From positions 5,938 through 69,937 of the forward strand of contig JBHHWG010000004.1 of NCBI GenBank assembly GCA_046756385.1: 64,000 bases of DNA, in the 5' to 3' direction. Position numbers and translations under genes: made by a program. Within the stretch, counting starts at the first letter, position 1, and every line of letters starts with the position of its first letter. The notes under the pieces were generated by a model that was not told the origin of the DNA, made no database searches, and was given only the letters and a program-made list of their open reading frames with translations. This document shows positions 1,189 to 58,654 of the stretch, piece after piece. The stretch comes from Sphingomonadales bacterium (lineage in GTDB: Bacteria > Pseudomonadota > Alphaproteobacteria > CAZZKF01).

Positions 1189-1691
1189 TGGAAGCGGCGG
1201 GTTCGGCTGTTGACGGCAGGCAGGCCGGGGCCGTTGATGGAAAAGACGCGCTCCGTCTGTGGCTCAGGCTTTTGACTTGCACCAATCTGATCGAGAGCCG
1301 AATCCGGACCCTGCTGCGCACCCGGTTCGACACAACGCTGCCGCGTTTCGACATGCTGGCCGCCCTCGACCGGGCGCCCCGCGGCCTCACCATGGGCGAG
1401 CTGTCGCACCGCCTGCTGGTATCCCAGGGCAATGTGACCAATGTCGCCCGGCGGCTGGAGGCGGATGGGCTGATCATCAAAGTCCCCTCGCCCGCTGACC
1501 GGCGCAGTCAGATTGTCAGCCTGACCGATCGAGGCCGCGAATGGTTCGCCAGCCTGGCCCGGCAGCACGAGATATGGCTCGCGGACATGTTTCAAAGTCT
1601 CGAGGCCGACGATATCGAAAGTCTGACACAAGCGATCGCCACGGCCCGGCAAGCGGTCGAGAACAGTGTCAAACCAGGAGAAAGCGGATGA
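1188..1691 (+). CDS. MarR-family transcriptional regulator
   Basis: Winged-helix region: [63 protein letters not shown]. The start was chosen at the ATG overlapping the SDR stop (TGATG). Confidence 0.75.
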
Positions 1692-2497
1692 ATATGGCGG
1701 ACTACAAGGCCGAGCATTTCCTGTGGCGGGTCGACGGCGCGGTCGCCACCATCACCCTCAACCGGCCGGAGCGCAAGAACCCGCTGACGTTCGAATGCTA
1801 TGCGGAACTGCGTGACCTGTTTCGCCAGCTTGGCCATGCGGACGATATTCATGCCGTGGTCATCACTGGCGCGGCGGGTAATTTCTGCGCCGGCGGCGAC
1901 GTGCATGAGATTATCGGTCCTCTGACCGGGATGGATATGAAAGGGCTTCTCCGCTTCACCCGCATGACCGGTGATCTGGTCAAGGCGATGCGCGCCTGCC
2001 CGCAGCCCATCATCGCCGCCGTCGACGGGGTGTGCGTGGGCGCCGGTGCGATTATCGCCATGGCCTCGGACTTGCGCCTGGCGACGCCGCAATCCAGAAC
2101 CGCTTTTCTGTTCAACCGGGTGGGCCTCGCCGGCTGCGACATGGGCGCCTGCGCGATTCTGCCGCGCATCATCGGTCAGGGCCGGGCGTCGGAACTGCTG
2201 CTCACCGGACGCGCAATGAGCGGTGAGGAAGGAGAACGCTGGGGCTTCTTCAACCGTTTGTGCGACGCCGACGACGTTCTGACGGAGGCTCAGGACCTGG
2301 CGGCCCGGATCGCCGCCGGCCCCAGCTTCGCCAACGGCATCACCAAAACCCAGCTCAATCAGGAATGGGCCATGAGCCTTGAAGCCGCGATCGAGGCCGA
2401 GGCTCAGGCCCAGGCGATTTGCATGCGCACCCGGGATTTCGAGCGCGCCTACCATGCATTCGTAAACAAGGAAAAACCAGTTTTCGAGGGCGACTGA
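1688..2497 (+). CDS. Enoyl-CoA hydratase/isomerase (crotonase family)
   Basis: [12 protein letters not shown] and [15 protein letters not shown] motifs. ATGA overlap with the MarR gene. Confidence 0.85.
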
Positions 2498-3684
2498 TGG
2501 CCGATAGAAGCTTTCTCGACTGGCCGTTTTTTGACGATGCGCACCGCGCATTGGCGAAGGAGATCGACCTCTGGGCGGCACGGGAAATCGGGCTGAGTTC
2601 CCACCACAATGCCGACATCGACGGCGCGTGCAAACGATTAGTCTCGAAACTGGGCGAGAGCGGCTGGCTCCGCGCCTGCGTGCCGGCAAGCCATGGCGGC
2701 TTGACCGGGACACTGGATGTGCGCTCCCTGTGCCTGATCCGCGAAACCCTGGCCCGTTATTCGGGCCTCGCCGATTTTTCGTTCGCCATGCAGGGCCTCG
2801 GAAGTGGTCCGATAACGCTTGCCGGAAGCAATGCACTAAAGGACGAATATCTGCCCGATGTAAGGGACGGCAAAAAAATCGCGGCCTTCGCGCTTTCGGA
2901 ACCGAACGCCGGTTCCGACGTGGCGGCGATCGCCACCACGGCCGAAATCGATGGCGAAACCGATGGCGATGATTATGTGCTCAACGGCGAAAAAACCTGG
3001 ACATCGAACGGCGGCATCGCCGATTTCTATTGTGTGTTCGCACGCACCGGCAGGGGGGCGGGGGCTCGGGGCCTCAGCGCTTTCGTGGTCGACGCCGATA
3101 CGCCGGGGCTCGAAATCGTCGAGCGGATCGACGTTATCGCGCCGCACCCGCTGGCCCGGATCAGGTTCACCGGCTGCCGGGCGCCCAGGTCAAGGATGCT
3201 GGGACAGCCGGGACAAGGATTCAGGATCGCCATGACGACCCTGGACATATTCCGCTCGACCGTGGCGGCGGCGGCCTTGGGTTTTGCCCGCCGCGCGCTC
3301 GACGAAGCGCTGGCACGGATTGACGAGCGCGAGGCGTTTGGCCGCAAGCTCGCCGACTTCCAGCTCACCAAGGCCAAGATCGCGGACATGGCGACCGGCG
3401 TGGACGCCAGCGCCCTGCTGGTCTACCGCGCCGCCTGGACCCGCGACCGCAAGGCCGACCGCGTGACCCGCGAGGCCTCAATGGCTAAAATGCATGCCAC
3501 CGAGACCGCCCAACAGGTGATCGACCATGCGGTCCAACTGTTTGGCGGCCAGGGGGTGGTGTCGGGGGTCAAGGTCGAAGAGCTGTACCGCGGGATACGG
3601 GCGCTTCGGATTTACGAAGGAACGACCGAGATCAACAAGCTGGTGATCGCCGATCAGACCATGCGCGGTTTCACCCCCCGCTGA
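2497..3684 (+). CDS. Acyl-CoA dehydrogenase
   Basis: 395 aa. [29 protein letters not shown] and the C-terminal [13 protein letters not shown] motif are typical of ACADs. Confidence 0.85.
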
Positions 3685-3756
3685 GGAGGCGACCCGGACG
3701 AGCCGCGCGGCCCTTGCCAGGTGCAATCCCCACACATTGGAGGAAGCAGTAAAACG

Positions 3757-4188
3757 ATGGGCGTATTTTCCACCGACATACCGATCCGCTTCGCCGACTG
3801 CGACCTGGCTGGCGTCATGTTCTATCCCCGTTTGATCGAACGGATCCAGCAGGTGGTCGAGCGGTGGTTCGACCAGGGCCTGGGGCTCGATTTCCACCAG
3901 GTTCATGTGGTCAATGGCTGGGGCCTGCCCACGGTCGATCTGCACTGCGAATTCGTTCATCCAAGCCGCCTTGGCGACGTGCTGTCATTCACCCTGTGGT
4001 TGGAAAAAATCGGGCGCACCTCGTTCATCGTCCGTATCGAAGCCAGATGCGGCGGCGAAATGCGGGCCAAGGCGCGGCTTGTGATGGTCATGCGCTCGTT
4101 CTATCGGCCTGAAAACACCGAAATTCCGACCGACCTGCGCACCGCGATGGGAAAATTCCTGAACCCACCGGGACCTGAGCAGGCTTGA
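3757..4188 (+). CDS. Hotdog-fold acyl-CoA thioesterase (4HBT/YbgC-like)
   Basis: FADCDLAGVMFYPRLIERIQQVVERWF matches the 4HBT-family active-site region. GGAGGAAG ribosome-binding site before the ATG at 3757. Confidence 0.65.
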   Translation: MGVFSTDIPIRFADCDLAGVMFYPRLIERIQQVVERWFDQGLGLDFHQVHVVNGWGLPTVDLHCEFVHPSRLGDVLSFTLWLEKIGRTSFIVRIEARCGGEMRAKARLVMVMRSFYRPENTEIPTDLRTAMGKFLNPPGPEQA

Positions 4189-4249
4189 GGTCGCGGATTA
4201 TGTTAGGGTGAGACGTTGCCATACGAGACCTGTGTCAAGGGAAGCCGCG

Positions 4250-5791
4250 GTGAACATTTCAGATTGGATTGCAAAGTGGGCCGACTTTACGCCGCGAAAG
4301 ACGGCAATCCGTTTCGAAGGCAAGGAAATCAGCTATGGCGAATTATCCGCGAACATCGCGCGGCTGGCCGCCGGGCTGAAAAACAGGCTGGGCGTGGCCC
4401 CCGGCGACCGGATCGCCCATCTGGGGTATAACAGCCCGGAAATGCTGATTTTGCTCTTCGCCTGCGCGCGACTGGGGGCGATGCTGGCGCCGCTCAACTG
4501 GCGGCTCGCCGCGCCTGAGCACCGATACATTTTACGCCAATCCGGCGCCAGATGCCTGTTCGCAGACCGCTCGTTCCAGGGTCATGTCGCCGCATTGAAT
4601 GAAGACGGCCGGGACATCGCGTTGATTTGTGTCGATGCCGCCGCGCCCGATGCCGGATGGACCGATTTCGCAACCCTGGCCAGGGAGAGCGCGCACGATA
4701 CGCCCGTCAATGTTATCAGCGATAATTCGCCGCTGCTGATCGTTTACACCTCGGGCACGACCGGAAAGCCCAAGGGCGCGGTGCTGACCCAGAACGCATT
4801 ATTGTGGAACGCGATCAACAGCATGCTCGCCCACGATCTGCGGAGCAGCGATCACATTCTGACCACCCTGCCGATGTTTCATGTTGGCGGCCTGAACATT
4901 CTGACCACGCCCGCCTTGCATGCCGGAGCGACGGTGACACTGCATCGCAAATTCGATGCGGCGGCCACATTGCGCGAAATAGCCAAATCCCGGCCAACGC
5001 TTACCGTGATGGTGCCCGCGCAGATGCAGGCCGCCAGCAGTCATCCCGAGTGGGGCGAGACCGACTTGAAGAGCCTGCGAATGTTGACCACCGGCTCCTC
5101 CATCGTGCCCAAACCGGTGATCGCTCCCTGGCATGATCGTGGCATACCCGTGGTTCAGGTTTACGGCTCCACCGAGACCGCGCCGATCGCCATTCATCAA
5201 CGAGCCGACGACGCCATGACCACGGCGGGCTCGACCGGCAAGCCGGCGGTTCATTGCGAGGTCCGGCTCATCGACAAGCAAGGCAACGACGTCGCGACCG
5301 GACAATGCGGCGAAATTCTTGTGCGCGGGCGCAATGTGATGGTCGAATATTGGGGCGATCGGGAAGCCACCGCCGAAGCCTTGCGCGGCGGCTGGCATTA
5401 TACAGGGGACATCGGCTACCGGGACGAAGACGGCAATTATCACGTTGTCGACCGGAAGAAGGACATGATCGTGTCGGGCGGCGAAAACATCTACCCGGCC
5501 GAGCTGGAAGCGGTGCTTTACGAACACCCGGACATTGCCGAAGCGGCTGTCGTCGGGCGCGCCGATCGAAACTGGGGCGAGGTCGCGGTGGCGGTCATCG
5601 GCTTGCGCGCGGGACGCCGGCTCGCCAAGCCGGAAGTCCTGGCCTTGTTCGACGACCGACTGGCGCGGTTCAAGCACCCCAAGGACGTCATTTTCGTGAA
5701 GAAGTTACCCCGAAACGCCATGGGAAAGATCCTCAAGTTCAAGACCCGCCAGATGCTGACAGGACGAGGAAAAGACAAATGCCATTCATGA
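4250..5791 (+). CDS. AMP-dependent acyl-CoA synthetase/ligase
   Basis: AMP-binding motif YTSGTTGKPKG, then GSTE and GWHYTGDIGYRDEDGNYHVVDRKKDMI, and a C-terminal LPRNAMGKILK. The start is uncertain: GTG 4250 or ATG 4208. Confidence 0.8.
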   Translation: MNISDWIAKWADFTPRKTAIRFEGKEISYGELSANIARLAAGLKNRLGVAPGDRIAHLGYNSPEMLILLFACARLGAMLAPLNWRLAAPEHRYILRQSGARCLFADRSFQGHVAALNEDGRDIALICVDAAAPDAGWTDFATLARESAHDTPVNVISDNSPLLIVYTSGTTGKPKGAVLTQNALLWNAINSMLAHDLRSSDHILTTLPMFHVGGLNILTTPALHAGATVTLHRKFDAAATLREIAKSRPTLTVMVPAQMQAASSHPEWGETDLKSLRMLTTGSSIVPKPVIAPWHDRGIPVVQVYGSTETAPIAIHQRADDAMTTAGSTGKPAVHCEVRLIDKQGNDVATGQCGEILVRGRNVMVEYWGDREATAEALRGGWHYTGDIGYRDEDGNYHVVDRKKDMIVSGGENIYPAELEAVLYEHPDIAEAAVVGRADRNWGEVAVAVIGLRAGRRLAKPEVLALFDDRLARFKHPKDVIFVKKLPRNAMGKILKFKTRQMLTGRGKDKCHS

Positions 5792-6667: not shown

Positions 6668-6940
6668 ATGCAGGAAAACACTTCAATCGAATCCGAGCAC
6701 CGGTCGGCATTGCTCCAAGTCGATTGGGATGAAGTGCAAGAACCCGGTTGCTATGTTGAGCAAGGTAGCGGTGACCTCTTCCGCATTCCCAAAGAGGCCC
6801 TGATTTCCGGCGCCTCCCCGTTGATCGTCAAGGAGAGCCGTGGAGCGTCGCGTCTGTTCCAAGTAAGCAAAGACCCCTATGTCACGACCCTGAAGGCGCG
6901 GATCATTTGCGCCCAGCATAACATCGACCCCAACTTCTAA
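6668..6940 (+). CDS. Small 90-aa protein, paralog A; candidate RiPP / QhpC-like precursor
   Basis: AAGGAG ribosome-binding site 8 nt upstream. 90 aa. Tandem paralog of 7070..7342 with about 60% identity. Shared motifs: SIESEH, VDW, PGC, GSGDL.RIPKEAL, KESRGASRLF, C.HNI.PNF. Sits in a local GC dip. Confidence 0.55.
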   Translation: MQENTSIESEHRSALLQVDWDEVQEPGCYVEQGSGDLFRIPKEALISGASPLIVKESRGASRLFQVSKDPYVTTLKARIICAQHNIDPNF

Positions 6941-7069: not shown

Positions 7070-7342
7070 ATGAAGGAGAAAAGTTCGATCGAATCTGAAC
7101 ATTGTACGCCTCTGACCCAAGTTGACTGGCAAGACATACGTAAACCCGGTTGCTCCGTTGAGCTTGGCTCCGGTGACCTCTGCCGCATTCCGAAAGAGGC
7201 CCTTGGCCGTAACCTTTCACCGGTGATCACAAAGGAAAGCCGGGGGGCGTCGCGTCTGTTCCGGGTCAGCGAGGACCCCCATGTTATAACGCTTAAAGTG
7301 CGATTTGTTTGCGCCAGGCACAATATCAAGCCAAATTTCTAG
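7070..7342 (+). CDS. Small 90-aa protein, paralog B; candidate RiPP / QhpC-like precursor
   Basis: Same length and collinear with paralog A. Conserved Trp20, Cys28, Cys80 and a conserved C-terminal HNI(D/K)PNF. Convergent with the protease / ABC / rSAM operon. Confidence 0.55.
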   Translation: MKEKSSIESEHCTPLTQVDWQDIRKPGCSVELGSGDLCRIPKEALGRNLSPVITKESRGASRLFRVSEDPHVITLKVRFVCARHNIKPNF

Positions 7343-7407: not shown

Positions 7408-8091
7408 TCAAATCGCGCGTCGTTCCGGCCCGTGATACCTGGCCCTGGAGCGAAGAAAATCCGCCGCCAATATTGACGCGCCGCCGTCGTCCAGATAGGC
7501 CGCCAGTTTCCCTGTAACATGGGCGGTGGCGAAACTGGAACCGCCGACGCGACGATCCCCAACCTCCTTCATGCCGCGTGGGCAGGCGCCGTATTCGGCC
7601 TGACTGGTCGCCAGATGGGAAATCTCGTCAGCCGCGCAGCGGGCATCCCCGCTGACGCTGATCACCCCGTCATAGGCGGAGGGATATATCTGTGTTCCCC
7701 GCGCGGGGCTTGCGGCCACCAGTATGATCCCTTCGCCCATTGCCCGCTGGCAAATCTCGCGCACCAAAACGCGGTCTTCGCGCAGGCCGAAGCTCATATT
7801 AATCATTGCGGCGCCTCGTCGGACCAGCCAGTCGAAGCCCTCCGCCACCAGCCGGGGGGTGGCCACTGGTTTGTCGTCAAATATTCGGGCGTTGAGAAGC
7901 CGGGCCCGCGGCGCGTGTCGCCAGATCACCTGGGCAAGCAAGCTGCCGTGCCGGATGGCGTCGGCCGTGTCCGGCCCCACGACCACCTTGCCCTCAGGGC
8001 CGACCTTAAATTGGCGAGCGGCGGCGACACGCGCCCTTTGGCCGCCATCCACCCCGCTGTCGAGCAGGCCAACCAGGACGCCGCTACTCAC
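7408..8091 (-). CDS. Minimal subtilisin-like serine protease (peptidase S8), QhpE-like
   Basis: 227 aa. The catalytic triad is in the canonical S8 order: GLLDSGVD (Asp), HGS (His), GSSFATAHVTG (Ser). Only about 230 aa, which is the size of leader-peptidase-type S8 enzymes. Confidence 0.75.
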   Translation of the reverse strand: MSSGVLVGLLDSGVDGGQRARVAAARQFKVGPEGKVVVGPDTADAIRHGSLLAQVIWRHAPRARLLNARIFDDKPVATPRLVAEGFDWLVRRGAAMINMSFGLREDRVLVREICQRAMGEGIILVAASPARGTQIYPSAYDGVISVSGDARCAADEISHLATSQAEYGACPRGMKEVGDRRVGGSSFATAHVTGKLAAYLDDGGASILAADFLRSRARYHGPERRAI

Positions 8092-9802
8092 CCGCCGCCC
8101 CCAACGCCGCCGGAGCCCGATCAGGCCACGCGATCAGTTTTCCGTCATAAAGTTCCAGCACCTGATCGGTATCGGCAATGAGTGTCTCACGATGACCGAT
8201 GAGGATGCGGGTCCGATCCGCGAACAGCCGGTCGATTTGATCGATCAATTGCGCTTCCGTTTCCCGATCGATGCCGGTCGTCGCTTCATCGAGGACCAGA
8301 ACCAGTGGATCCTGCAAGATCGCCCGCGCCATCGCCAGGCGCTGACGCTGCCCCCCCGAAAGTTGTGCGCCACGCTCGCCGGCCGAAGTGTCATATCCGT
8401 CCGGCAACGTGCGAATAAACCCGTCGATTCGGGCCCGTGCGGCCGCATCGATAATTTCCGCCCGGGTGGCGCCCGGCCGGGCGTAGCGAATATTGTCCGC
8501 AATGGTGCTCCTGAACAGCACAGTGTCCTGAGCAACCACCGCAATCGCGCGGCGCAAGGCCCCAATGTCGAGCGTCTTAAGATCGATGCCGTCGAGCAGG
8601 ATGCGGCCGACATCAGGATCGTAATGGCGGTGCAGCAGATCCGTCATTGTCGACTTCCCGACGCCCGACCGGCCGACGATCGCGACCTTCGCCGCGCCCG
8701 GTATTTCCAGACTGGCGTGATCGAGAACTGCCCGGTCGCGGCCGGGGCGGAAGAATGTTACGCATTCGAAACGAATGGCGCCTTTTGCCTTGTCCGGCAA
8801 GGATGCCGGGTGCGCCGGCGAACATATCACAGGCCGCTGACACGCCAGTTCCATGACCCGGCTCAGACTGACCCGGGCCCGTTGGCTCGCGACATAGAGA
8901 CCGAGGAAAGTCCGTATCGGCCCCGCCGCCCGTCCCATATAGACCGAAAACGCAATCAAAGTGCCGATCGTTATCCGTTCGTCCGCAACCAGGTAGCCGC
9001 CGGTGACAAAAACCAGCGCGATCGCCAGGGTCATCAGCACCCCGGGCGCCGCGCCGGCCAAATAGTTCGTGATTTGCAGGCGTAGCTGATCGGACAAATA
9101 ATCGCTGTGCAACCCGGCGAGACGCCGCGCCTCGCGCTCCCCGGCGCCAACCGCCTGCACGAATTTCATTGCCCCCAGCGTCTCGACCAGAAATCCGGTG
9201 ATGTCGCCGGCCCGCTCCCGCGCGGCTCGGGTCAACCGCTGGATACGCGGACGCATGGTCCGCAAATAAGCGACCTGGAGCGGTAGCAGGACGAAGGCGA
9301 TCAATGTGAGCAGTGGGCTCATCCACAGCATAACCGCCAGACTGCCGACAAGCGCAAGGACGCCATTGACCACGGCAAGCAGCGAATCGGTCGAGAACCG
9401 TTGAATTTCGGCAATATCGCCATCGAGCCGGGTCATGATATCGCCGGTACCGCGCGTGGCGTGGAAATCGGGACTAAGGCTCGTCAATTGACGGTAAACC
9501 TGCTCGCGCATGGCGAATAGAATCCGGCCCGAAAGTGCGGTGTAGAGCCAACGGTTCAGACCGCCGGCCGCCGCCGAAAGCACCGCCGCCGCGACCAGAA
9601 TTCCGCACAGCCACGACACCACGGCCATGTCGCGCTCGATCAAGCCGTCGTCAATCAGCAGCTTGGTAAGATACGGCTGCACCAGCGCCAAACCGGTGGC
9701 GACAATCGACAGCGACAGAACCTGAACCAGGGCGCGACCTTGCGGCCGGACAAAACCGAGCGCCCAGCGGATTGCCGCCTGTTGATCGGCGCCCGGCCTC
9801 AA
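8084..9802 (-). CDS. Fused ABC transporter permease/ATPase (type I exporter), QhpF-like
   Basis: 572 aa. N-terminal 6-TM region. Walker A GRSGVGKST, ABC signature LSGGQRQR, Walker B LVLDEAT. Confidence 0.85.
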   Translation of the reverse strand: MRPGADQQAAIRWALGFVRPQGRALVQVLSLSIVATGLALVQPYLTKLLIDDGLIERDMAVVSWLCGILVAAAVLSAAAGGLNRWLYTALSGRILFAMREQVYRQLTSLSPDFHATRGTGDIMTRLDGDIAEIQRFSTDSLLAVVNGVLALVGSLAVMLWMSPLLTLIAFVLLPLQVAYLRTMRPRIQRLTRAARERAGDITGFLVETLGAMKFVQAVGAGEREARRLAGLHSDYLSDQLRLQITNYLAGAAPGVLMTLAIALVFVTGGYLVADERITIGTLIAFSVYMGRAAGPIRTFLGLYVASQRARVSLSRVMELACQRPVICSPAHPASLPDKAKGAIRFECVTFFRPGRDRAVLDHASLEIPGAAKVAIVGRSGVGKSTMTDLLHRHYDPDVGRILLDGIDLKTLDIGALRRAIAVVAQDTVLFRSTIADNIRYARPGATRAEIIDAAARARIDGFIRTLPDGYDTSAGERGAQLSGGQRQRLAMARAILQDPLVLVLDEATTGIDRETEAQLIDQIDRLFADRTRILIGHRETLIADTDQVLELYDGKLIAWPDRAPAALGAAGE

Positions 9803-9808
9803 GGCGCC

Positions 9809-11287
9809 CTACCCGCCCATGTCCATCGATGCGCCGCTCGGTCCGCGGGGCCCAATATGCTCCGCAAGGAAATCCGGATTTCGCGCCAATATCGCGTCAT
9901 AACATTCAATGGCGGCGTCGACCCAGTCGCGCATCAGATCGCAATAAAGGTATGTCGGACTCTTCGGGTCGTGATAGTTCAGATATGATTCATGATAACA
10001 GCCCCCGGCGCACAGGTTGCGTATCCAGCAGGTCCGGCACGAACTATCATCGAGATTGGCCGCATCTTCCAGAAACCGCGCCAGCTCGTCCTTCCTGATG
10101 CCCTCACGAACTGTCCCAAAGGTCTGGAAATCCGAGCCCGCAAAACGGTGGCACAAGGCCAGACTGCCCTTGGGCTCAACCCCCAGCAGCCCCACACCGG
10201 CGCCGCAGGGCAAGGTCTTGCGATTGCCGTGGTGGAGGTCGGCCAGAAGCTTTTGCAGATTGGAAAATCCGATATTGCGACCGGCAATCGCCGCGTCCCG
10301 GTAGCTTCGGCCCAATGCTTTCATATTTTCGAAAAACTCGGCCAGTTCATCCCCGGTCAATTTGAACCGGCTGGAGCCGTCGGATGTGACCGGCGCGAAG
10401 CCCACCTCGGTAAAACCCAGCTCATGGAACAGATGGTGGTGGATCGCGGCAACGTCGATTGCGCCCGCGGTAACGGTCACCCGCGCGCCGACCGGGCCCG
10501 CCTTGTAACGACCCAGCAGCATGCGCGTTTTTTCGGCTACCAGATCGTAGCTTCCGGCGCCGCGCCTGGTTTTTCGGTGACGATCGTGTACCGCTTTGGG
10601 ACCGTCGATGGACAGTGAAATGGCGAAATTATGCCCGCCCAGGAAATCGACTGATTGCTCGGTCAGCAGGGTCGCATTGGTGGTCAGCGAAAAGTTGGGG
10701 CATTTGCCCAATGCCTGGCAACGGCCCTCGGCATAGGCCACAACGGCTTTAATCAGCGGCATGTTGCTCAACGGCTCGCCGCCAAAGAAAACGACATTTA
10801 CCCGCTCCCGGTCCCCGCTTTCTCCAAGCAGCAAATCAATGCTTCGGGCGGCGGTTTCGAAATCCATGCGGATCGCGCCCGACGGCCGGGTCAGGTCCTC
10901 TTTGTAACAATAGTCGCAGGCGAGATTGCAACCGGTTGTAACATTGATGACCATGGTGCTGAGCGGAAAATTCCTGATCGCGACGGGTTGCCGTCTGGTG
11001 GCCTTCGCCTGTCCTGAGACAAGGATTCCAAGCTCCTTGAACTCACGGATCGTTTGCGCGATTTCAGCCGCCGGGAAGCGGCCGTCAAAATGCCGTTCAA
11101 TATCTGGCGCGTGGATTTCGCCGGTCGACTTGAAAAGGTCGTAGACGGCGACGCCGGCGTCATCAAGCTCGAACATGGCTGTCGTCGGCACATGAAAAAC
11201 GATGCGCCGACCGTTGGTCGCGACATCGTGGACATCCCGCCGAACCATTCGGAGACCGGCCATCGGATCCTCAAACAACGAATACAA
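9809..11287 (-). CDS. Radical SAM / SPASM-domain peptide-modifying enzyme with N-terminal PqqD-like RRE (QhpD-like)
   Basis: CNLACDYC is the CX3CX2C radical-SAM motif. The C-terminal Cys-rich region (CRTCWIRNLCAGGCYHESY) is the SPASM auxiliary cluster. An ~100-aa N-terminal extension (VYDLFKSTGEIHAPDIERHFDGRFPAAEIAQTIREFKELGILV) resembles a PqqD-type RiPP recognition element. Confidence 0.85.
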   Translation of the reverse strand: MYSLFEDPMAGLRMVRRDVHDVATNGRRIVFHVPTTAMFELDDAGVAVYDLFKSTGEIHAPDIERHFDGRFPAAEIAQTIREFKELGILVSGQAKATRRQPVAIRNFPLSTMVINVTTGCNLACDYCYKEDLTRPSGAIRMDFETAARSIDLLLGESGDRERVNVVFFGGEPLSNMPLIKAVVAYAEGRCQALGKCPNFSLTTNATLLTEQSVDFLGGHNFAISLSIDGPKAVHDRHRKTRRGAGSYDLVAEKTRMLLGRYKAGPVGARVTVTAGAIDVAAIHHHLFHELGFTEVGFAPVTSDGSSRFKLTGDELAEFFENMKALGRSYRDAAIAGRNIGFSNLQKLLADLHHGNRKTLPCGAGVGLLGVEPKGSLALCHRFAGSDFQTFGTVREGIRKDELARFLEDAANLDDSSCRTCWIRNLCAGGCYHESYLNYHDPKSPTYLYCDLMRDWVDAAIECYDAILARNPDFLAEHIGPRGPSGASMDMGG

Positions 11288-11332
11288 CCACCGTCAAGTG
11301 TACCAAACACGCTGGCTGCCGGAAAGCGCCCC

Positions 11333-11495
11333 TAGAGCACTTTCAGCTCTTATGGAATCATTTGATGGGCGGGAGCGTCTCGTCCGGCAAGGCGCGGCGC
11401 GCCGCGCGATACGGTGTATCGGGCAAGCGTCGCAACGCCGCCACAACGCAAAATCAGCCCGGTCAAATGCCCCCATAAAAGCTGAAAGTGCTCTA
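11333..11495. repeat. Perfect 16-bp inverted repeat (TAGAGCACTTTCAGCT ... AGCTGAAAGTGCTCTA) flanking a 131-bp spacer, in the divergent rSAM / ABC-importer intergenic region
   Basis: Arms at 11333-11348 and 11480-11495 are exact reverse complements. Partial matches extend to about 21 bp. Confidence 0.6.
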
Positions 11496-11594
11496 TTATC
11501 GACGAAAACAGTGCCGCCAACCGCCGCTGTTGCCTAAGTTACAGGATATGAGCTATCACGGCGTCGATCATTGCTTCAGTCAGAGACCAAGGGC

Positions 11595-12299
11595 ATGAGC
11601 GACCTAGCCGCCGCATTCGCCGCCGCGTTCGATTTGATCGTCTCGCTCGATGCCGAGCTGATGGAGATCGTCGGACGTTCGCTCGCGATCAGCCTTTCGG
11701 CTGTGGCCATCGCCGCCGTGATCGGCCTGCCGCTGGGAGCGGTCCTCGCGGTGATCCGATTTCCGGGCCGGCAGTTCGCAATCATTGTGTTGAACGCCCT
11801 GATGGGCATTCCCCCTGTCGTGGTCGGCGTGGTGATCTACCTGCTATTGTCGCGCTCCGGACCGCTCGGCACATTCGGCCTGCTGTTCTCGCCGTGGGCC
11901 ATGATTATCGCCCAGACCTGCCTGATCACGCCAATCGTCGCCGCACTCAGCCGCCAGATCGTCGATGACCTTTTCGCCGAATACCGGGAATTGCTGAAAT
12001 CGCTTGGCGTCGGGCCCGTCCGGGCGATCCGCACGCTGTTGTGGGACGGCCGGCTGAGCCTGCTGACGGCCGTTCTTGCCGGCTTTGGACGCGCCGCTGG
12101 CGAAGTGGGCGCGGTGCTGATCGTGGGCGGCAATATCGACCATGTCACCCGGGTCATGACCACGGCAATCGCCCTTGAGACCAGCAAGGGACAACTGGCT
12201 CTCGCGGTCGGTCTGGGCATGATCGTCCTGCTGTTATCGATCGGCGTCAACGCGGCGGCCATGCTGACGGGTCAAGCCGCAAAGCGATTGCGGAGCTAA
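11595..12299 (+). CDS. ABC transporter permease, tungstate/molybdate-type (TupB/ModB-like)
   Basis: About 235 aa with 5-6 TM segments. The EAA-like loop (LFAEYRELLKSLGVGPVRAIRTLLWDGRL) and small size are typical of oxoanion ABC permeases. Confidence 0.65.
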   Translation: MSDLAAAFAAAFDLIVSLDAELMEIVGRSLAISLSAVAIAAVIGLPLGAVLAVIRFPGRQFAIIVLNALMGIPPVVVGVVIYLLLSRSGPLGTFGLLFSPWAMIIAQTCLITPIVAALSRQIVDDLFAEYRELLKSLGVGPVRAIRTLLWDGRLSLLTAVLAGFGRAAGEVGAVLIVGGNIDHVTRVMTTAIALETSKGQLALAVGLGMIVLLLSIGVNAAAMLTGQAAKRLRS

Positions 12300-13051
12300 T
12301 GGAAGCAACGGTTACGAATACGGCCCCGCCGGTGGAGAACACCGGCATTCTGCCCCTGGCGCTCGACCGGGTCAGTTTCAGCGCCGGTGGCCAGGCCCTG
12401 ATCGACGAGATTTCGCTCCAGCTTGACGCCGGGCCAATGACCTTGCTGCTGGGGCCCAATGGCGCCGGCAAGAGCTTGCTGCTGCGATTGTGCCATGGCC
12501 TGGTCAACCCCACGTCCGGCTCCATCCAGTGGCGCGGGCCGGGCGGAGCACAATCGAACAGGGCTCAGGCCATGGTTTTTCAGCGGCCGGTGATGCTGCG
12601 TCGTTCCGCGCGCGGCAACCTGATCTATGCCCTGGCGGTGTCCGGCTGGTCGCGACGTGACCGCGGGGAACGGGTTGAGCGCATGCTGGAACGGGCGGGA
12701 CTTGAGGATATTGCCGATCGCTCGGCCTGGGTGCTGTCAGGCGGCGAGCAACAGAGGCTGGCGCTGGCGCGCGCCTGGATAATGGAACCGCAGGTGCTTT
12801 TCCTTGATGAGCCGACGGCCAATCTGGACCCGGCGGCGACCCGGGCGGTGGAGGGCATGATACGGGCCATTCATGAAGCAGGCACCAAGATCGTCATGAC
12901 CACCCACGACCTTGGCCAAGCGCGCCGTCTGGCCGATGAAGTTATGTTCATTTATCAGGGCGCCATCACCGAACGGGCCGCGGCGAACACGTTTTTCGCG
13001 GGACCGACGACCAGCGAGGCAGCCGCATATGTCGAGGGGCGCTTACCATGA
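12299..13051 (+). CDS. ABC transporter ATP-binding protein
   Basis: Walker A GPNGAGKS, signature LSGGEQQRLALARA, Walker B LFLDEPTANLD. ATGG overlap with the permease gene. Confidence 0.8.
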   Translation: MEATVTNTAPPVENTGILPLALDRVSFSAGGQALIDEISLQLDAGPMTLLLGPNGAGKSLLLRLCHGLVNPTSGSIQWRGPGGAQSNRAQAMVFQRPVMLRRSARGNLIYALAVSGWSRRDRGERVERMLERAGLEDIADRSAWVLSGGEQQRLALARAWIMEPQVLFLDEPTANLDPAATRAVEGMIRAIHEAGTKIVMTTHDLGQARRLADEVMFIYQGAITERAAANTFFAGPTTSEAAAYVEGRLP

Positions 13052-13911
13052 TCCGATTGCTTGGAAGGCGGGCGTGGGGCGCCGCATTGACCGTGTCCCT
13101 CCTGACCTTCACCGTCGCAAACGAGACCCACGGCGCCGGTCGCCACATCACTGTGGCTTCGACGACATCGACCGAAAATTCAGGCTTGTTCGACCACGTC
13201 CTGCCCCTATTCGAAACCCGAACCGGTATCTCGGTTCGGGTGATCGCAAAGGGCACCGGTCAGGCTATTGAAATAGCGCGGCGCGGCGATGCTGACGTTT
13301 TGCTCGTCCATCACCGACCGTCGGAAGAGAAATTCGTCGCCCAGGGCTTCGGACTGAAGCGCCGGGAAGTGATGTACAACGATTTCGTAATTGTGGGTCC
13401 CCGCGACGATCCCGCGGACATCGGCGGCGGCCATGATGCGCTAACAGCGTTGCGGCTGATCGCGGCCAGCAGCGCGCCGTTTCTGTCACGCGGTGACGAA
13501 AGCGGCACCCATCGGCGTGAACTGGCGCTGTGGCGCGAAGCCGCGCTTGATGTCGATGGAGCGGGCTTTTCCTGGTATCGGGAGGCCGGCGCGGGCATGG
13601 GCGCCGCCCTCAACATCGCCGCTGAGGCGGAAGCCTACATCCTGGCCGACCGGGGGACCTGGCTGGGTTTCCACAACAAACGAAACCTGGAAATTCTGGT
13701 TGAGGGGGATAAGCGGCTGATCAACATTTACAGCGTTATCCTGGTCAATCCGGTCAGGCATCCCCACGTCAAGGCGAAGGACGGTCGGACATTTATCGAG
13801 TGGCTGCTCTCCCCCCCGGGACAGGCGGCAATCGCCGGCTTTCGCATCGCCGGCGAACAGCCCTTTTTTCCTCTTGGAACGACGGGCGCTTACGGAACCA
13901 GGCCGCGGTAA
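13048..13911 (+). CDS. Periplasmic substrate-binding protein, tungstate-binding TupA-like
   Basis: Signal peptide. The TTSTENSGL motif is characteristic of TupA/WtpA-type oxoanion-binding proteins. Gene coupling to the permease and ATPase. Confidence 0.6.
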   Translation: MIRLLGRRAWGAALTVSLLTFTVANETHGAGRHITVASTTSTENSGLFDHVLPLFETRTGISVRVIAKGTGQAIEIARRGDADVLLVHHRPSEEKFVAQGFGLKRREVMYNDFVIVGPRDDPADIGGGHDALTALRLIAASSAPFLSRGDESGTHRRELALWREAALDVDGAGFSWYREAGAGMGAALNIAAEAEAYILADRGTWLGFHNKRNLEILVEGDKRLINIYSVILVNPVRHPHVKAKDGRTFIEWLLSPPGQAAIAGFRIAGEQPFFPLGTTGAYGTRPR

Positions 13912-15221
13912 CGCAGCCAGTCGCGGGCTACGGCGGCCTCTCCGAAGGTTACCTTGAACCGACGCACCGCGAGTTCGAGCGAACTGCCCTTGTTTTCAAG
14001 AAATTCAAGCAAGGAAACCACAGGGACGCCCGCCACTCGCCATATTCCGCGCGGGTGATCGGGCATCACCAGGACGTCGGCCGCCTTGATGACGTGCCCG
14101 TCGACCACCGGCCGGCGGGCAATTACAATTTCATCCGGCGGCCAATGAACGAACATGGGTTGGCGTTTCAGCGGCTGTCGCCGGCCGCGCCAGAAGGGCC
14201 GCTCCGGCCAGCGTGTCTCGCCGGCATAAAACTCGCGCCCGACATCGATCGCGTGGGCAAAGCGGGTTCCCGCCCGGTAGTGGTAAAAATCAATCGCGAG
14301 ATCGGCACGCTCCGGGTGTCGGATCAGTGTGATGATCACCGGCACCGCCGCCAGCGCGCAACCGAGAGCCTCGAACACGCCGTGGCCGGACAGCGGATCA
14401 AGGGCGATCGCGGCATCACCGACACGGATCACGCCACGCTCAATCGTCGGTTCGCAAAGCACCGGCCCCGCCGCCCGGGCGATGACCGGACCCACCGGCC
14501 GGGCCCCGGTGAGCCAGACCGCGGCTTCGGGAATGCGGGCGATCAGATCGCCGTAAAACCGATTCAATTTCTCTCGGGACGGCATTTGCCCCCGGCCACC
14601 GGCTACAAAAACCTGCAACACTGCCTGGCCTTCGTGGTCGGCGGCAAACCAGGCCCACCCGTCATCAAACGACGCGGTGGCGCTGAACGAGCCCATGTCT
14701 GAGGCAATTTGCCACTCCCGCACCAGCGCGGCCGTCTCTGGGGCCGCCACTCGCCGCCCCTTCGAACGAGGCGCCTGCCGGCCGCGTGCCTCAACAATGA
14801 CACCGGCTTCGAGTTCCATCTTGTCCCACCGCGACGGCCGAAGTGTGACCGTGGCGCCATGTTCGCCGGTTCTAATGGCGCCCACGGCCGCGTCAATCAC
14901 CGTCGCGTCGGACAGGCGGAGGGTTTTGAGGAGCACGGCGTCAAACCGGGCCCGGTTGACGATCCGCTCCCGGTTGACGGTGCTGGTCTCGCAGCGCCAC
15001 GAAGCCCGGCGTTCAATCCGGGGCCCCAATGTTGCGAGCGCCGCACCCAGACCCACCGACTTCAACACCGCTTCGGTACGCGCCGGCAAGCCCTCAATCG
15101 CGAGTACGCGTCGCGGCCTCGTGACCAGCGCAACGCGATGGCCGAGCCGCGATAGCCCCAGCGCGGTCGCGCACCCCGCCGGCCCGCCGCCCAGAACGAC
15201 AATGTCGAAACGCTCCACCAT
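13890..15221 (-). CDS. FAD-dependent monooxygenase (flavin halogenase/hydroxylase fold), QhpG-like
   Basis: N-terminal dinucleotide-binding motif IVVLGGGPAGCATA. GDAAIALDPLSGHGV is the GDAAxxxDPxxGxG motif of group-A flavoprotein monooxygenases. An extra ~100-aa C-terminal domain is present. Confidence 0.8.
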   Translation of the reverse strand: MVERFDIVVLGGGPAGCATALGLSRLGHRVALVTRPRRVLAIEGLPARTEAVLKSVGLGAALATLGPRIERRASWRCETSTVNRERIVNRARFDAVLLKTLRLSDATVIDAAVGAIRTGEHGATVTLRPSRWDKMELEAGVIVEARGRQAPRSKGRRVAAPETAALVREWQIASDMGSFSATASFDDGWAWFAADHEGQAVLQVFVAGGRGQMPSREKLNRFYGDLIARIPEAAVWLTGARPVGPVIARAAGPVLCEPTIERGVIRVGDAAIALDPLSGHGVFEALGCALAAVPVIITLIRHPERADLAIDFYHYRAGTRFAHAIDVGREFYAGETRWPERPFWRGRRQPLKRQPMFVHWPPDEIVIARRPVVDGHVIKAADVLVMPDHPRGIWRVAGVPVVSLLEFLENKGSSLELAVRRFKVTFGEAAVARDWLRYRGLVP

Positions 15222-15418
15222 TATCTGAAAAACTACATGAACGCCTCAACCAAGGCAACGGACGTTGGGCGCGAACCCGATCTGACGCGCCGATTTCGTG
15301 TCGTTTCATCAACTCATTAAGACTAAAATAAGATTTTTCGCCGAAACTCCAATTTAGCTTCAGTGACGGATGGGTGCCCCCTTCCACATATGTTGCAAAG
15401 CGGTGACCAAAGAAAACT

Positions 15419-16438
15419 TTGTGTTACTCAAAACGAAATTCCAGTAGTCAAACGATAGCCTTTGAGCATGGTGGTGGCTTGTTTAGACAACTTGCGGTCG
15501 GTCTGATCGCCCTATGTTGGCTCGCCTCCGGGGCCGGCCCTGTTGAGGCGGCGGAGCAGCCCAATGCGAGGGCCCTGAGAGCCCATGCGCTTATTATCGG
15601 GGAACTAAAACTCCTGCACCAGGCGGACCTTGTATCGTTCGACCCCGCGTCGGTGCGCGTGCCTCACGACGACCGCCAAATTCGCCATGTGATGCAGCGT
15701 GCCCGGAAGTTAATGGGGCGGGTCCAGAAGCTTCGATTCATGAATGGTCTGCCGCGCAACCGCGCTGCCCCGATAGAGGCCAAAATTATTGGCACTGAGG
15801 ACCTCGCGGCCATGATCGAAGCCATCCTGCGCGAAGTCCGGGAGTTGCGCCCGATTTATCGGATCAGCAATGTCAAACCGCCGCGGGATTTCGCCGCCGA
15901 CGGCACGCTGAAAGATATCATGCAAGGGCTGGCGCTGGCCGACGCCATGGTCGAGGCTTTGGGCGTTCCGGCTCCCGTACCCAACGACGTCTATCGGACC
16001 GCACTGTCGATCAATGCCGCGCTCGATAGGCTTTTGTCGGCCCGTGGGCTGAAACCGGTCGAGGTCAAAGCGACGGAACGCAACAAGGTGCCGACCGATG
16101 TCTACGCACGTGTCCATGAGTTTCTCGAACTCCTGAAACGCACGGTGGAGGAACAACCGGATTTCAACATCCCGGGCGGCATCACATTGCCGGGACGCAA
16201 GACGGAGCCCATCAAGCCAAAGGACGTCCTCGACCTGCTTGACGACATGCTGGCCGACATCCTGGCCTTAAAGGCGGCGATAGGAATCCGGGCGCCGGCC
16301 GAGTTCACCCGGGAACAGGTTGGAAAAACACCAAGCGACGTTTTCGACCAGATCAGCAGAGCCCTGTTCAACCTGAACCGGCTGCGCCTGCAAACCCGAC
16401 GGCAAACGAAATTCGGAGGCACTCGGAATGCCGAGTGA
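15419..16438 (+). CDS. Hypothetical secreted/periplasmic protein, probably coupled to the sensor kinase
   Basis: Hydrophobic signal-like segment LAVGLIALCWLASGAGPVEAAEQ. The start is uncertain (an internal TTG at 15479 is possible). The stop overlaps the kinase start. Confidence 0.45.
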   Translation: MCYSKRNSSSQTIAFEHGGGLFRQLAVGLIALCWLASGAGPVEAAEQPNARALRAHALIIGELKLLHQADLVSFDPASVRVPHDDRQIRHVMQRARKLMGRVQKLRFMNGLPRNRAAPIEAKIIGTEDLAAMIEAILREVRELRPIYRISNVKPPRDFAADGTLKDIMQGLALADAMVEALGVPAPVPNDVYRTALSINAALDRLLSARGLKPVEVKATERNKVPTDVYARVHEFLELLKRTVEEQPDFNIPGGITLPGRKTEPIKPKDVLDLLDDMLADILALKAAIGIRAPAEFTREQVGKTPSDVFDQISRALFNLNRLRLQTRRQTKFGGTRNAE

Positions 16439-18155
16439 CGCCAGGGGAATGACATGCGGAAACGGTCCTGCCGTTGTCGGCGGGCGCACCAAGGGGGCCG
16501 GCAAATTTTCAGGCGTCGGCGCCAAAGTGTTTTTGCTGGCGGTCGTCCCGGTTCTCACGATTGCCGGCTTGAGCGCCCAGATCGCGCTCAACAATATCAG
16601 TTACACGAAAACAGCGGTCGAAAGCCGCAACGTTGAGGAACGTGAATCCGCCAGACTGAACCGGAACGCCCTGGCTGTACAGGAACAGATGCTTGAGCTG
16701 ACACAGGCGATCAGCAAGGTTGTCAGGCGGCATCAGGAAAACCTCCTTCTACCCAGCCGTGGAGCTTCTGGCGACGTTCTGGCTGGGCGCCGCGTCGCCC
16801 GGCAATGCATCAAGGATTTTAACGATACAGTTCAAAACCTGGCCGCTCTGATCTCCGATTTCGAACCGTTGGACATTGGCGCGGACGGCACCGAACTGGC
16901 CCAGGAGCTGGAGCAACGCATGTCCTATCTGGCCCGCTGGTCCAATAATCTGCCTCGGCTGTTCAAACTGTTCGAGCAGGCGAACGACCGCACGACGACG
17001 GCGCTGCAGTCCGGCGATTCCGCCAGCGCCATGGCCAACTACATTTACGAGGAAACGTCCCACCTTGCCGTCCTGGATAACCGCGTGAACAAGATGTCCG
17101 CGGTATTGGGAGACATGGTCGAAAGTTTATCGACGCTTCAAGGCTTTGAACGGGAGGCCTCGGCGGCCCGAATCCTTGAAGAAATTGCATCATCCAACCT
17201 TCGCATTTTGACCCTGATCGCAACAACGACCTTTATATTGTTGGGCGTGGCCGTCGCCTACTCCCATTTCGGCCTGACAAAACCACTGGTTCGGCTGATT
17301 GCCTCCATGAAGGAACTTGGCAACGGCAATAAGAAGATAGAGATTCCGACCGGGGCCGGGGAGATCGGCGAAATGGCCCATACATTGGCGGTGTTCCGGG
17401 ATAATGCCGTTGCCAAGGAAGCCGCCGAGGAACAGTTGATTCAAGCGCAAAAAATGGAGTCGATCGGCCAGCTCACGGGCGGCGTCGCGCATGATTTCAA
17501 CAACCTGCTGTGTGTCGTCCTGGGCAATCTGGAACTGCTTCAGGAAAAACTGGAACATGACGAGCATCTGCGGAAATTGGTTCAGCGCGCCATCGGCGCC
17601 GCCGACAAGGGCGCGGTGCTGGTGCAGCGATTACTGGCATTCTCGCGCAAGCAAACCCTGATGCCCAAGGAAACGGACATTGGCGACATGGTCGAGGGCA
17701 TGTCCGGTTTACTGCGCCGGACGCTCGGCGAATGGGTCGAGATCAGGACTGAAACGGAAGACGAACCGTGCATCGCGCGGATCGATTCGGCGCAACTGGA
17801 AAATGTTCTGCTGAATCTTGCGCTGAACGCCCGCGACGCCATGTCCAGCAGGGGGACGTTGACGATTGCGGCCAGGAATACATACCTGGACGACACCCGT
17901 CTGACCGATCACGAGGGCCTGGAACCGGGGCATTTCGTATTGGTTTCAGCAACCGATACTGGCGAAGGCATACCGGCGGAACATCTTGAGAGGGTCTTCG
18001 AGCCGTTCTTCACCACCAAGGAAGTGGGCAAGGGAAGCGGCCTCGGCCTGTCGATGATTTATGGTTTCGTCAAGCAGTCAGGCGGCCATATCGAAATCGA
18101 AAGCCACGTCGGGACTGGCACTTCAATCCGAATTTATCTGCCGCGAGTTCTTTAA
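16428..18155 (+). CDS. Sensor histidine kinase (periplasmic sensor, HAMP, HisKA, HATPase_c)
   Basis: Two TM segments flank a ~230-aa periplasmic region. H-box [21 protein letters not shown]1 and G2 boxes near the C-terminus ([11 protein letters not shown]). No receiver domain. Confidence 0.85.
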
Positions 18156-27729: not shown

Positions 27730-28128
27730 ATGGAGTTCTTTGCATCAACCGAGACCGGCGACCATGACGTAAGCGCCCATGCGCGCAAAATTGGTGAGGA
27801 TGTGCTGGTCGCGATCTGGGGCGGCGACAAGCCTCATATCGGCGCCGTGGCGGCTGCCCAACCGCGCCCCAGTCTTGACGACCGAACCAGAACCAGCGCC
27901 TCAACATCCGTGATCTGCTTTGTCGGCCACAAAGAAGACGATCTGGCAAAGCATGCGGCGCAGACGCTCGCGTCGGCGTTGAAGGTGCGGGTCGTTGTCA
28001 CCGCCGGCATCCATTGGGACAACATCACGCCGGACGGAATCAAATCGGTTCGCTGCAACTGCAAGTCCGTAATCGCAAAGGTTGCCGATCTCCTGTCTGG
28101 CGCCCCGGAACGTCCGGAAACGGCCTGA
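27730..28128 (+). CDS. Hypothetical protein (132 aa)
   Basis: Intact ORF with good codon usage between the RdhA-like and MCP genes. No recognised motif. Confidence 0.3.
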
Positions 28129-28312
28129 CCGACCCCCTTCGAATTCACGCCCCAGCCCCCTGTTTTTCACTACCGACCATCACATTTGTTTACTAGTCCT
28201 TTACCACCCAGCCAATAGGCTCACAACAATGGCAGGAGCAAGCACCGCCCTGATTCCAGCATCTCTTGTCGATATTGCCGATTTTTCTGACGTGAAGCAG
28301 AGGAGTATTTCC

Positions 28313-29644
28313 ATGGCAAAGTTCGAGCCCGATGCACAGGGCCGGTTGGCATTTCTGGCCATCAATCAAAAGACGTTTGAAATTCTTGGCAAATTATGGC
28401 CAAGCATCGAACCCAGGATCATCCATATTGTGGGCGGTTTCTTCGACCATTTGACGTCGGTGCCTCACTTGCGCAAGGCGTTAAAGGGGGTTGATTTCGA
28501 AAAATTGAAGCAGCGTCAGGTCGAACATTGGCAACAACTTTTCACGCAGGGAATTGATGACGCCTTCATCAAATTCACGACGGATGTCGGCGCCGAGTAT
28601 CACAAACTAGGGTTCGAGCCGCGCTGGTTCCTGGGAAGCTACGCGGTTGAATTCCGTGGCTTCCAGGCGGTCGCGAACAGGACTTTCAGGAACGCCCCCA
28701 AGGAGTTGGCCGCCGCAACCACCGCTATTAACAAGATCCATGTTCTGGTAACCGAGGTCCTGGTCTCATCTTATTACGCAGCCTCCCGCCAGGCGGCGCG
28801 GGCTGAGCTCGAAAAACACGCCAGGGCTTTTGAAACCGGCGTCCTGGCGATGGTCGATTCGGTTGCGGCCGCAACCAGCCAGGTGCGTGATACCACCCGG
28901 AACATGCTCGTTTCCGCAACCGAGGCCAGCGACCTGAGCAGCTCGGTCAAAGAGGCATCCAATCGGGCGTCGGAGAATGTCCAGGCCGTGGCCTCCGCGG
29001 CCGAGGAATTGGCGGCTTCAGTGTCCGAGGTCAGCCGGCAGGTGTTGCAGGCGGCTCAGGCCACCGACGACGCGGCGACAGAAGCCGACGGATCCACCGA
29101 AACAATCAGCAGCCTGATGGAGGCCTCTGAACGAATCGGCGACGTTGTAAAGCTGATCTCCGACATCGCCTCGCAAACCAACCTGTTGTCCCTCAACGCT
29201 ACAATCGAGGCGGCGCGGGCCGGCGATGCGGGCCGCGGCTTCGCCGTTGTGGCCTCAGAGGTCAAGACACTCGCCGGGCAAACCGCCAAGGCGACCGGCG
29301 ATATCGCCGCTCAGATCGGCGCCATTCAGCAGGCCACCAAGCGCGTCGTCGCCGCGAATGACAAGATCACCGGCTCGATCGGCAATGTAAGGGATGTCTC
29401 GGCCGCGATCGCTTCAGCGATCGAGCAGCAGGGAGCCACCGCCGCCGAGATCAGCCGTAACATCAACAATGCGGCAAACGGCACCGAGGAAGTTTCCGAT
29501 GGCACAAACAACGTCGACGGCGCATCGCGGCGCACGGGCGACGCGGCCCGGGAGGTCAGCACCGCCGCCGAAGACATCGCCGGCAAGGTGGCGACATTGA
29601 ACACCCAGGTTCAGGATTTCCTGATCGCGGTGCGTAGCCACTGA
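28313..29644 (+). CDS. Globin-coupled sensor methyl-accepting chemotaxis protein (protoglobin-MCP, HemAT-like), copy 1
   Basis: AGGAGT ribosome-binding site. An ~170-aa N-terminal protoglobin-type sensor ([21 protein letters not shown]...[26 protein letters not shown]...). MCP signalling domain with the highly conserved region [35 protein letters not shown]. No TM segments, so soluble. Confidence 0.85.
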
Positions 29645-32402: not shown

Positions 32403-32720
32403 GCTTCACTCTTTCGGGCTTTACGATCGCGGGCGCCAGACAAGGAGGGCACCGAAAGCGGCAACCGTCCCCAAGCCGACCAACCGCTTAAACTATCGAA
32501 TCCTGCTTGGCGAATCTGACGCCAATATTTGACTCCATATGTACCATACGGTACGGTACAGTCTAACATGCAACAGAGCTGGTGTACAGAACCATGACCT
32601 AAAGGTTCCGAACCGCCGGAATTCTGGGATTGATCAGCTAGTGGTCCGGGCGGATATCCGGGAACCAAATGTCTTTGTCGGACCACTAGCCCGACAAAGA
32701 GATGAATGGGAGCGCGCCAC

Positions 32721-39121: not shown

Positions 39122-39124
39122 GGT

Positions 39125-57927: not shown

Positions 57928-57930
57928 CTC

Positions 57931-58653: not shown

Positions 58654-58654
58654 C

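Follow-up and report, generated by a model that had tools for sequence, protein, structure and literature searches.

What does a flavoprotein gene do beside a set of peptide-modifying enzymes when an importer lies between them? In a 64,000-nucleotide stretch from a Sphingomonadales bacterium (contig JBHHWG010000004.1, positions 5,938 to 69,937; here called the window), a gene for a flavin-dependent monooxygenase lies near one minus-strand operon (7408..11287) that encodes a radical S-adenosylmethionine (rSAM) protein, an ATP-binding cassette (ABC) exporter and an S8 peptidase. A preliminary description of the locus had called the flavoprotein QhpG-like, with a halogenase/hydroxylase-type flavin adenine dinucleotide (FAD) fold and an extra C-terminal domain of about 100 residues, and had doubted its membership in what looked like a system for RiPPs (ribosomally synthesized peptides with post-translational modifications). 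Here, we consider it very probable, taking all parts together, that the gene encodes a QhpG orthologue of quinohemoprotein amine dehydrogenase (QHNDH) maturation with a normal winged-helix domain, that the importer is an independent Tup-type system, and that qhpA, qhpB and qhpC lie elsewhere in the genome. Coordinates of most features are collected in Table 1.

Identity of the flavoprotein and of its C-terminal domain

As an FAD-dependent monooxygenase, QhpG doubly hydroxylates the tryptophan precursor in QhpC, the small gamma subunit of QHNDH, toward cysteine tryptophylquinone (CTQ), and for the Pseudomonas putida enzyme a crystal structure has been determined (PDB 7CTQ; Oozeki et al. 2021; PMC7876137). 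The window gene begins with ATG, has a third-position G+C fraction (GC3) of 0.75, similar to that of the surrounding genes, and encodes a 443-residue protein of which an identical copy is present in public collections (P0001); the closest other sequence among those found is at most 61% identical. It scores 435.4 bits against the NCBIfam QhpG equivalog NF049967 (cutoff 240), residues 7-436 spanning positions 1-423 of the 423-position profile. The best PDB sequence match is 7CTQ, the P. putida ‘peptidyl tryptophan dihydroxylase’ (phmmer E 7e-62), in an alignment of residues 7-442 with chain residues 8-432 that reaches both C-termini, and 7CTQ_A also ranks first when the AlphaFold2 (AF2) model of the protein (predicted local distance difference test score, pLDDT, 89; predicted template modelling score, pTM, 0.88) is searched with Foldseek (E 3e-42, template modelling (TM) scores 0.80/0.82, 34% identity), ahead of CmlS, CndH and Bmp2. 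The open reading frame (ORF) is thus real and encodes a full-length QhpG orthologue, divergent from the P. putida protein but an ordinary member of the family, and the cautious label ‘QhpG-like’ can be replaced by that of a QhpG equivalog. A search of a genome-contig collection with the single QhpG protein returned only two contigs (L001 and L002), both through irrelevant N-terminal Rossmann matches.

The N-terminal catalytic domain has a glutathione-reductase-type FAD fold, to which Pfam assigns only weak, generic matches (FAD_binding_3, Trp_halogenase, Lycopene_cycl, Pyr_redox_2), and this accounts for the initial view of a halogenase/hydroxylase fold followed by an unexplained tail. The fold assignment itself was sound: outside QhpG, no structure comes closer to the catalytic domain than those of the halogenases CmlS (3I3L) and CndH (3E1T), although these are only 19-23% identical, have no C-terminal winged helix of the QhpG type, and the halogenase families score far under their cutoffs. 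LodB and GoxB, the maturases of CTQ-containing LodA-like oxidases (NF038171 and NF038174), share the FAD monooxygenase fold and the conversion of a peptidyl tryptophan to tryptophylquinone. In contrast to QhpG, however, they are without the winged-helix region, and the window protein scores only 77 and 68 bits against their models (cutoffs 400), in alignments that stop at about residue 347.

Similarity to the P. putida enzyme extends to the active site. Twelve residues are known for a part in FAD binding or in lining the re-face channel, or because their mutation abolishes activity or affinity for QhpC, namely E42, R47, R70, W74, E84, R89, W181, W183, D260, P267, R307 and R314 (P. putida numbering; PMC7876137). 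When 42 QhpG sequences taken from the retrieved loci were aligned and these positions mapped, all but the last proved to be kept in the window protein (11/12), so that the FAD, channel and substrate-entrance residues are conserved, the Arg314 position being occupied by histidine.

The C-terminal domain noticed earlier is real, the stretch quoted for it (DEIVIARRPVVDGHVIK...RRFKVTF) being found at about residues 363-427, but it is not an addition. 7CTQ is built of a catalytic domain spanning residues 1-344 plus a C-terminal winged-helix domain (residues 349-429; PMC7876137), and the latter region aligns with the window protein to its last residues. Moreover, the domain is carried by all aligned homologues, seven in alignment A1 and 21 in alignment A2, with invariant D-P-R-G-W and W-L-R motifs (in both alignments and in alignment numbering, the invariant residues are D387, P389, R390, G391, W393, W434, L435 and R438), and nearly all of the 120 homologues listed, which are 425-509 residues long, cover 91-100% of the query, two of them covering 86-87%. 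The tail of about 100 residues is the standard QhpG winged-helix domain.

A different idea sees in this domain a PqqD-like RiPP recognition element (RRE) at which the precursor would dock by its leader peptide. It draws on the order of the structural elements of the domain, which in our models, including that of the domain alone (pLDDT 88.6), is three beta strands and then three helices. RRE domains likewise consist of three strands followed by three helices. QhpG is also known to bind the QhpC-QhpD complex, but it is for the interaction with QhpD that the leader is reported to be necessary, while QhpG prefers the crosslinked core, and the large pocket lying between QhpG's two domains was modelled as the docking site of crosslinked QhpC (PMC7876137). 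Likeness of the C-terminal domain to PqqD and RRE folds did not rise above that to generic winged-helix domains. A leader-docking RRE is hence improbable, and the proposed comparison of the predicted structure with QhpG and PqqD comes out in favour of a QhpG winged helix, PqqD-like not being the best description.

The maturation genes and the importer among them

The three genes of the minus-strand operon are those expected for QHNDH maturation. The rSAM protein and the S8 peptidase exceed the equivalog cutoffs for QhpD and QhpE (Table 1), and the exporter, with fused membrane and ATPase domains, is 55% identical (593 bits) to the QhpF of a canonical locus (L004); all three genes lie within 6.5 kb of qhpG. 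The source contig as publicly annotated carries the rSAM protein (P0241) under the name ‘quinohemoprotein amine dehydrogenase maturation protein’, and the true start of qhpD is probably 24 bp downstream of the ORF start, which gives the 484-residue form of that annotation. The window QhpD is 57-61% identical to the QhpD proteins of canonical A-D-C-B operons and 62-64% identical to those of loci that also carry the importer described below.

Whether the flavoprotein accompanies the rSAM protein across genomes was checked by scanning metagenomes with aligned QhpG sequences, which yielded 80 loci whose six-frame translations were searched with QhpA-QhpG, TupA, TupB and TupC queries; counts were taken over the 48 QhpG loci of at least 8 kb. 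Another qhp gene stands beside qhpG in 46 of these 48, QhpD in 42, QhpE or QhpF in 40, QhpA in 40 and QhpC in 39, and canonical loci (L004, L007 and L092) show gene orders such as G-A-D-C-B-F-E. A flavoprotein that keeps unrelated neighbours and is never found with the rSAM/S8/ABC set is thus not what these loci present. Since it travels with that set, it belongs to the QHNDH maturation system rather than to an unknown RiPP pathway, and with the three neighbours recognised as QhpD, QhpE and QhpF by score or homology and found beside QhpG almost everywhere, the earlier doubt about its membership is removed.

By homology with the characterised system of P. putida and P. denitrificans, maturation would proceed in four steps. 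QhpD would bind the leader of QhpC and install three Cys-to-Asp/Glu thioethers. Next, QhpG would join the QhpC-QhpD complex, the crosslinked QhpC core docking in the pocket between the catalytic and winged-helix domains and the QhpC tryptophan entering the re-face channel beside FAD, where two hydroxylations would take place in a single turnover. The leader would then be removed by QhpE and the subunit exported to the periplasm by QhpF.

In contrast to P. putida, qhpG is here parted from qhpD by three plus-strand importer genes, as had been correctly noted. The last of them, tupA, is convergent with qhpG, and the 3' ends of the two genes overlap by 22 bp. As in known TupABC systems, the permease and ATPase genes form one operon with the gene for the binding protein. 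The latter matches 3MUQ (1.6e-71), the Geobacter sulfurreducens tungstate-binding protein 3LR1 (3e-66) and Desulfovibrio alaskensis TupA 5MY5 (2.4e-58). The key residues of TupA are a TTTS motif, His59, Arg118, Thr124 and Asp170 (PMC5517513), and the oxyanion site is kept in the window protein, with His, Arg (SRGD), Thr (SGTH), Asp (DRGT) and STTS for TTTS, the first Thr being replaced by Ser. Unlike the characterised proteins, the binding protein and the permease stay under the NCBIfam TupA and TupB equivalog cutoffs (218.5 bits against 400 and 158.7 bits against 320), although the permease does pass NF038017 (240.8 bits, cutoff 100). Because the two equivalog cutoffs are not reached, the importer is called TupABC-type, with tungstate or molybdate as its probable ligand judging from these residues and matches.

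The placement of tupBCA between qhpD and qhpG is one of two unusual features of the locus and is seen in one small lineage. A QhpG gene that is convergent with, and overlaps, tupA is found in the window and on four other contigs, whose QhpG proteins are 43-61% identical to that of the window: L088 (61%), L003 (50%), L089, a close relative of L003, and L090 (43%). In L003 and L090, QhpG-TupA lies next to TupC, TupB and QhpD; L003 continues with TupC, TupB and divergent QhpD and QhpF, its importer permease and same-position ATPase being 86% and 66% identical to those of the window, and in L090 TupB is set apart from QhpD-F-E by the insertion of a two-component system and a FIST gene. The six-frame search of the 80 other QhpG loci detected no Tup gene. 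In a neighbour-joining tree, the window, L088, L003 and L089 group together with L090 nearby, and a canonical locus (L008) is interleaved in the group.

One explanation for this arrangement is that the importer is a functional part of an amine-oxidation module, supplying tungstate or molybdate for a tungsten- or molybdenum-dependent aldehyde oxidoreductase that clears the aldehyde formed by QHNDH, adjacency being maintained for the sake of co-regulation. QHNDHs occur alongside a tungsten aldehyde oxidoreductase in Aromatoleum aromaticum. A preprint on that oxidoreductase mentions QHNDH as well, and the two QHNDHs of the species are the subject of a 2019 article in J Bacteriol. Consistent with such a module, the QhpG-TupA-TupC-TupB layout is kept in the window, L003 and L090 though the QhpG proteins are just 43-50% identical, tupB and qhpD diverge from a short common spacer (283 bp in the window, 127 bp in L003), and genes fitting a route from amine over aldehyde and acid to acyl-CoA lie nearby, namely a pyridoxal phosphate (PLP)-dependent decarboxylase in L003 and L090 and AMP-ligases, acyl-CoA dehydrogenase and enoyl-CoA hydratase in the window and L090. 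However, no gene for a molybdenum or tungsten enzyme was found in the 64-kb window, the insertion in L090 means that the divergent promoter is not conserved, and neither a molybdenum cofactor (Moco) riboswitch nor another shared regulatory element was found: an Rfam scan gave no Moco riboswitch upstream of tupB and only a tRNA in the window, and a promoter and terminator scan of 11100..15600 gave results at the level of shuffled sequence. Tup genes are, moreover, missing from the 80 other loci, and unrelated flanking genes are equally syntenic, so that shared ancestry suffices for the layout. We regard a functional link as unlikely.

The flanking genes in question are an acyl-CoA block (1541..5791, plus strand) of enoyl-CoA hydratase, acyl-CoA dehydrogenase, 4HBT thioesterase and AMP-ligase genes, which is convergent with qhpE and syntenic with L090 13907..20515. 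Between the window and L090, identities are 65% for the AMP-ligase, 65% for TupA, 78% for TupB, 62% for QhpD, 50% for the thioesterase and 43% for QhpG. Since the non-qhp genes are equally syntenic and similarly diverged, vertical inheritance of the block fits and no functional link between tup and qhp genes is required. Most likely, the adjacency is inherited synteny and the importer works independently in metal-oxyanion uptake; it would have become lodged between qhpD and qhpG in this one lineage. A PLP-dependent decarboxylase gene and a CitMHS transporter gene adjoin qhpG in both L003 and L090.

The missing structural genes and candidate substrates

Several observations weigh against the reading of the locus as an ordinary QHNDH maturation cluster beside an independent importer. 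First, qhpA, qhpB and qhpC went undetected in the 64-kb window and in L003 (12.6 kb) and L090 (21 kb), where they were sought with single queries run with --max, a CXXCH scan and profile hidden Markov models (HMMs) derived from 38-52 sequences; the same HMMs gave 198-779 bits on L092 as a positive control, and the CXXCH scan for the dihaem protein QhpA found a single chance motif in a 110-residue frame. Co-expression with the substrate gene has been argued to be expected of single-turnover maturases (PMC7876137), and with qhpC near qhpG in most loci (39/48), the separation is atypical. The order of qhp genes is described as variable (PMC7876137). Second, all five Tup-linked proteins have His or Ala in place of Arg314, which belongs to the five residues at which mutation impaired P. 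putida QhpG. Third, the persistence of the Tup adjacency over 43-61% QhpG identity could also reflect a functional link.

Elsewhere in the family, too, qhp genes are found apart from the structural genes. Locus L010 (8153..13768) comprises just D, G, F and E, and locus L014 (8024..11966) just G, E and F, while 7-8 kb of flanking sequence contains none of qhpA, qhpB and qhpC. The Tup-linked group is thus not alone in having a split qhp cluster. The window QhpD is equally close to canonical and to Tup-linked QhpD proteins, which argues for the same QhpC-type substrate. Most likely, qhpA, qhpB and qhpC are encoded elsewhere in the genome and the cluster has been split in a lineage-specific manner. 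Position 314 was considered as a mark of a changed substrate and rejected as such: among the 37 other QhpGs it is Arg in 26 and not Arg in 11, most of the latter coming from loci with canonical qhp neighbours, and variation at canonical loci provides no argument for a different substrate.

The same gaps could be taken to mean that QhpD, QhpE, QhpF and QhpG no longer serve QHNDH and instead mature and export an unrecognised Cys- and Trp-containing RiPP-like product. Such a change of client would fit the absence of qhpA, qhpB and qhpC from all three stretches, the non-Arg residue at position 314 in 5/5 Tup-linked QhpGs, and the rule that single-turnover maturases are normally encoded with their substrate (PMC7876137). 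Against it, all four proteins are, by score, equivalogs or close homologues of the canonical enzymes, the window QhpD diverges from canonical QhpDs no more than these do from one another, other lineages split their qhp genes as well, and no conserved candidate precursor ORF lies beside the genes. We hold this alternative to be very unlikely. Similarly slim are the chances of a maturation set that, in this small and sparsely sampled lineage of a Sphingomonadales metagenome-assembled genome and its relatives, has been uncoupled from the QHNDH structural genes and permanently tied to a tungstate-type importer, acting on a new crosslinked, Trp-hydroxylated substrate or within a tungsten-dependent amine/aldehyde module.

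Candidates for a substrate or for a missing qhp gene were weighed and rejected. Two tandem paralogous genes beside qhpE encode proteins of 90 residues that are 67% identical to each other, and they are real genes, their differences falling mainly at third codon positions. The family is hypothetical, widespread and highly conserved (60-80% identity across Alphaproteobacteria, Acidobacteria and Steroidobacteraceae), has no Pfam or NCBIfam model, shows no similarity to QhpC, lies elsewhere among unrelated genes with no link to qhp, and has no member in L090, its synteny notwithstanding. Small ORFs between qhpD and tupB (e.g. 11294..11476, minus strand) were dismissed on the grounds that the spacer is just 127 bp in L003. 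A 339-residue protein encoded divergently from qhpG, which looks like a secreted helical protein, was considered as QhpB or QhpR and discarded: it has no family match, its gene appears to be co-transcribed with that of a histidine kinase, and neither L003 nor L090 conserves it. Its gene overlaps the start of the kinase gene, which suggests that it is a periplasmic accessory protein of the kinase.

Other genes of the window and significance

Outside the qhp region, the window contains the start of a Mu-like transposable element, two adjacent globin-coupled sensors, and UbiX, TetR and UbiD genes that look like a prenylated-FMN decarboxylase module (Table 1). Of two TPR/methyltransferase ORFs, the longer shares its annotated 5' end with a tRNA gene on the opposite strand, so that its real start probably lies further downstream, and a 131-residue ORF that matches only a part of the NnrS profile is probably a truncated NnrS fragment.

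Table 1. Features of the 64-kb window and their positions
Feature	Position	Strand	Remarks
Two tandem paralogous 90-aa genes	6668..6940, 7070..7342	+	beside qhpE
qhpE, subtilisin-like (S8) leader peptidase	7408..8091	-	227 aa; NF049966 equivalog 235.6 bits (cutoff 165)
qhpF, ABC exporter	8084..9802	-	572 aa; ABC_membrane + ABC_tran
qhpD, radical SAM/SPASM thioether-forming maturase	9809..11287	-	TIGR03906 quino_hemo_SAM equivalog 663.5 bits (cutoff 453)
tupB-like ABC importer permease	11571..12299	+	242 aa; BPD_transp_1
tupC-like ABC importer ATPase	12299..13051	+	250 aa; ABC_tran 2.3e-29
tupA-like periplasmic oxyanion (tungstate/molybdate) binding protein	13048..13911	+	287 aa; signal peptide; PBP_like_2 3e-40
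qhpG, FAD-dependent peptidyl-tryptophan dihydroxylase	13890..15221	-	443 aa
qhpG C-terminal winged-helix domain	13893..14147	-	~residues 359-443; three beta strands then three helices
qhpG catalytic domain	14178..15221	-	~residues 1-348; halogenase/hydroxylase-like
Secreted, mostly helical protein without family match, and HAMP/HisKA sensor kinase	15419..18155	+	339-aa protein at 15419..16438
Two adjacent protoglobin-domain methyl-accepting chemotaxis proteins	28082..29644, 29788..31119	+	globin-coupled sensors
UbiX-like flavoprotein (prenyltransferase-type), TetR regulator, UbiD-family decarboxylase	31153..34238		
Twin paralogous TPR-repeat + methyltransferase-domain genes	37412..41110	-	569 and 661 aa
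tRNA gene	41083..41156	+	overlaps longer TPR/methyltransferase ORF
131-aa ORF	42166..42561	-	matches positions 2-119 of the 371-position NnrS profile
Mu-like transposable prophage/element start	53913..59281		
S24/HTH repressor of Mu-like element	53913..54716	-	
Mu-type transposase	55783..57927		
AAA_22/TniB-like MuB-type ATPase	57931..58653		

The question with which we began is mostly closed, in that the ‘RiPP-like’ neighbours are the known QHNDH maturation set and the C-terminal domain had already been described structurally. For the family, the comparison adds that qhp maturation genes are separable from qhpA, qhpB and qhpC even though the maturases act in a single turnover, and that one lineage stably carries a TupABC importer within its qhp cluster. 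If complete genomes of this lineage were to hold no qhpC, the maturation set would have a new substrate, which would be of interest for the study of both protein-derived cofactors and RiPPs.

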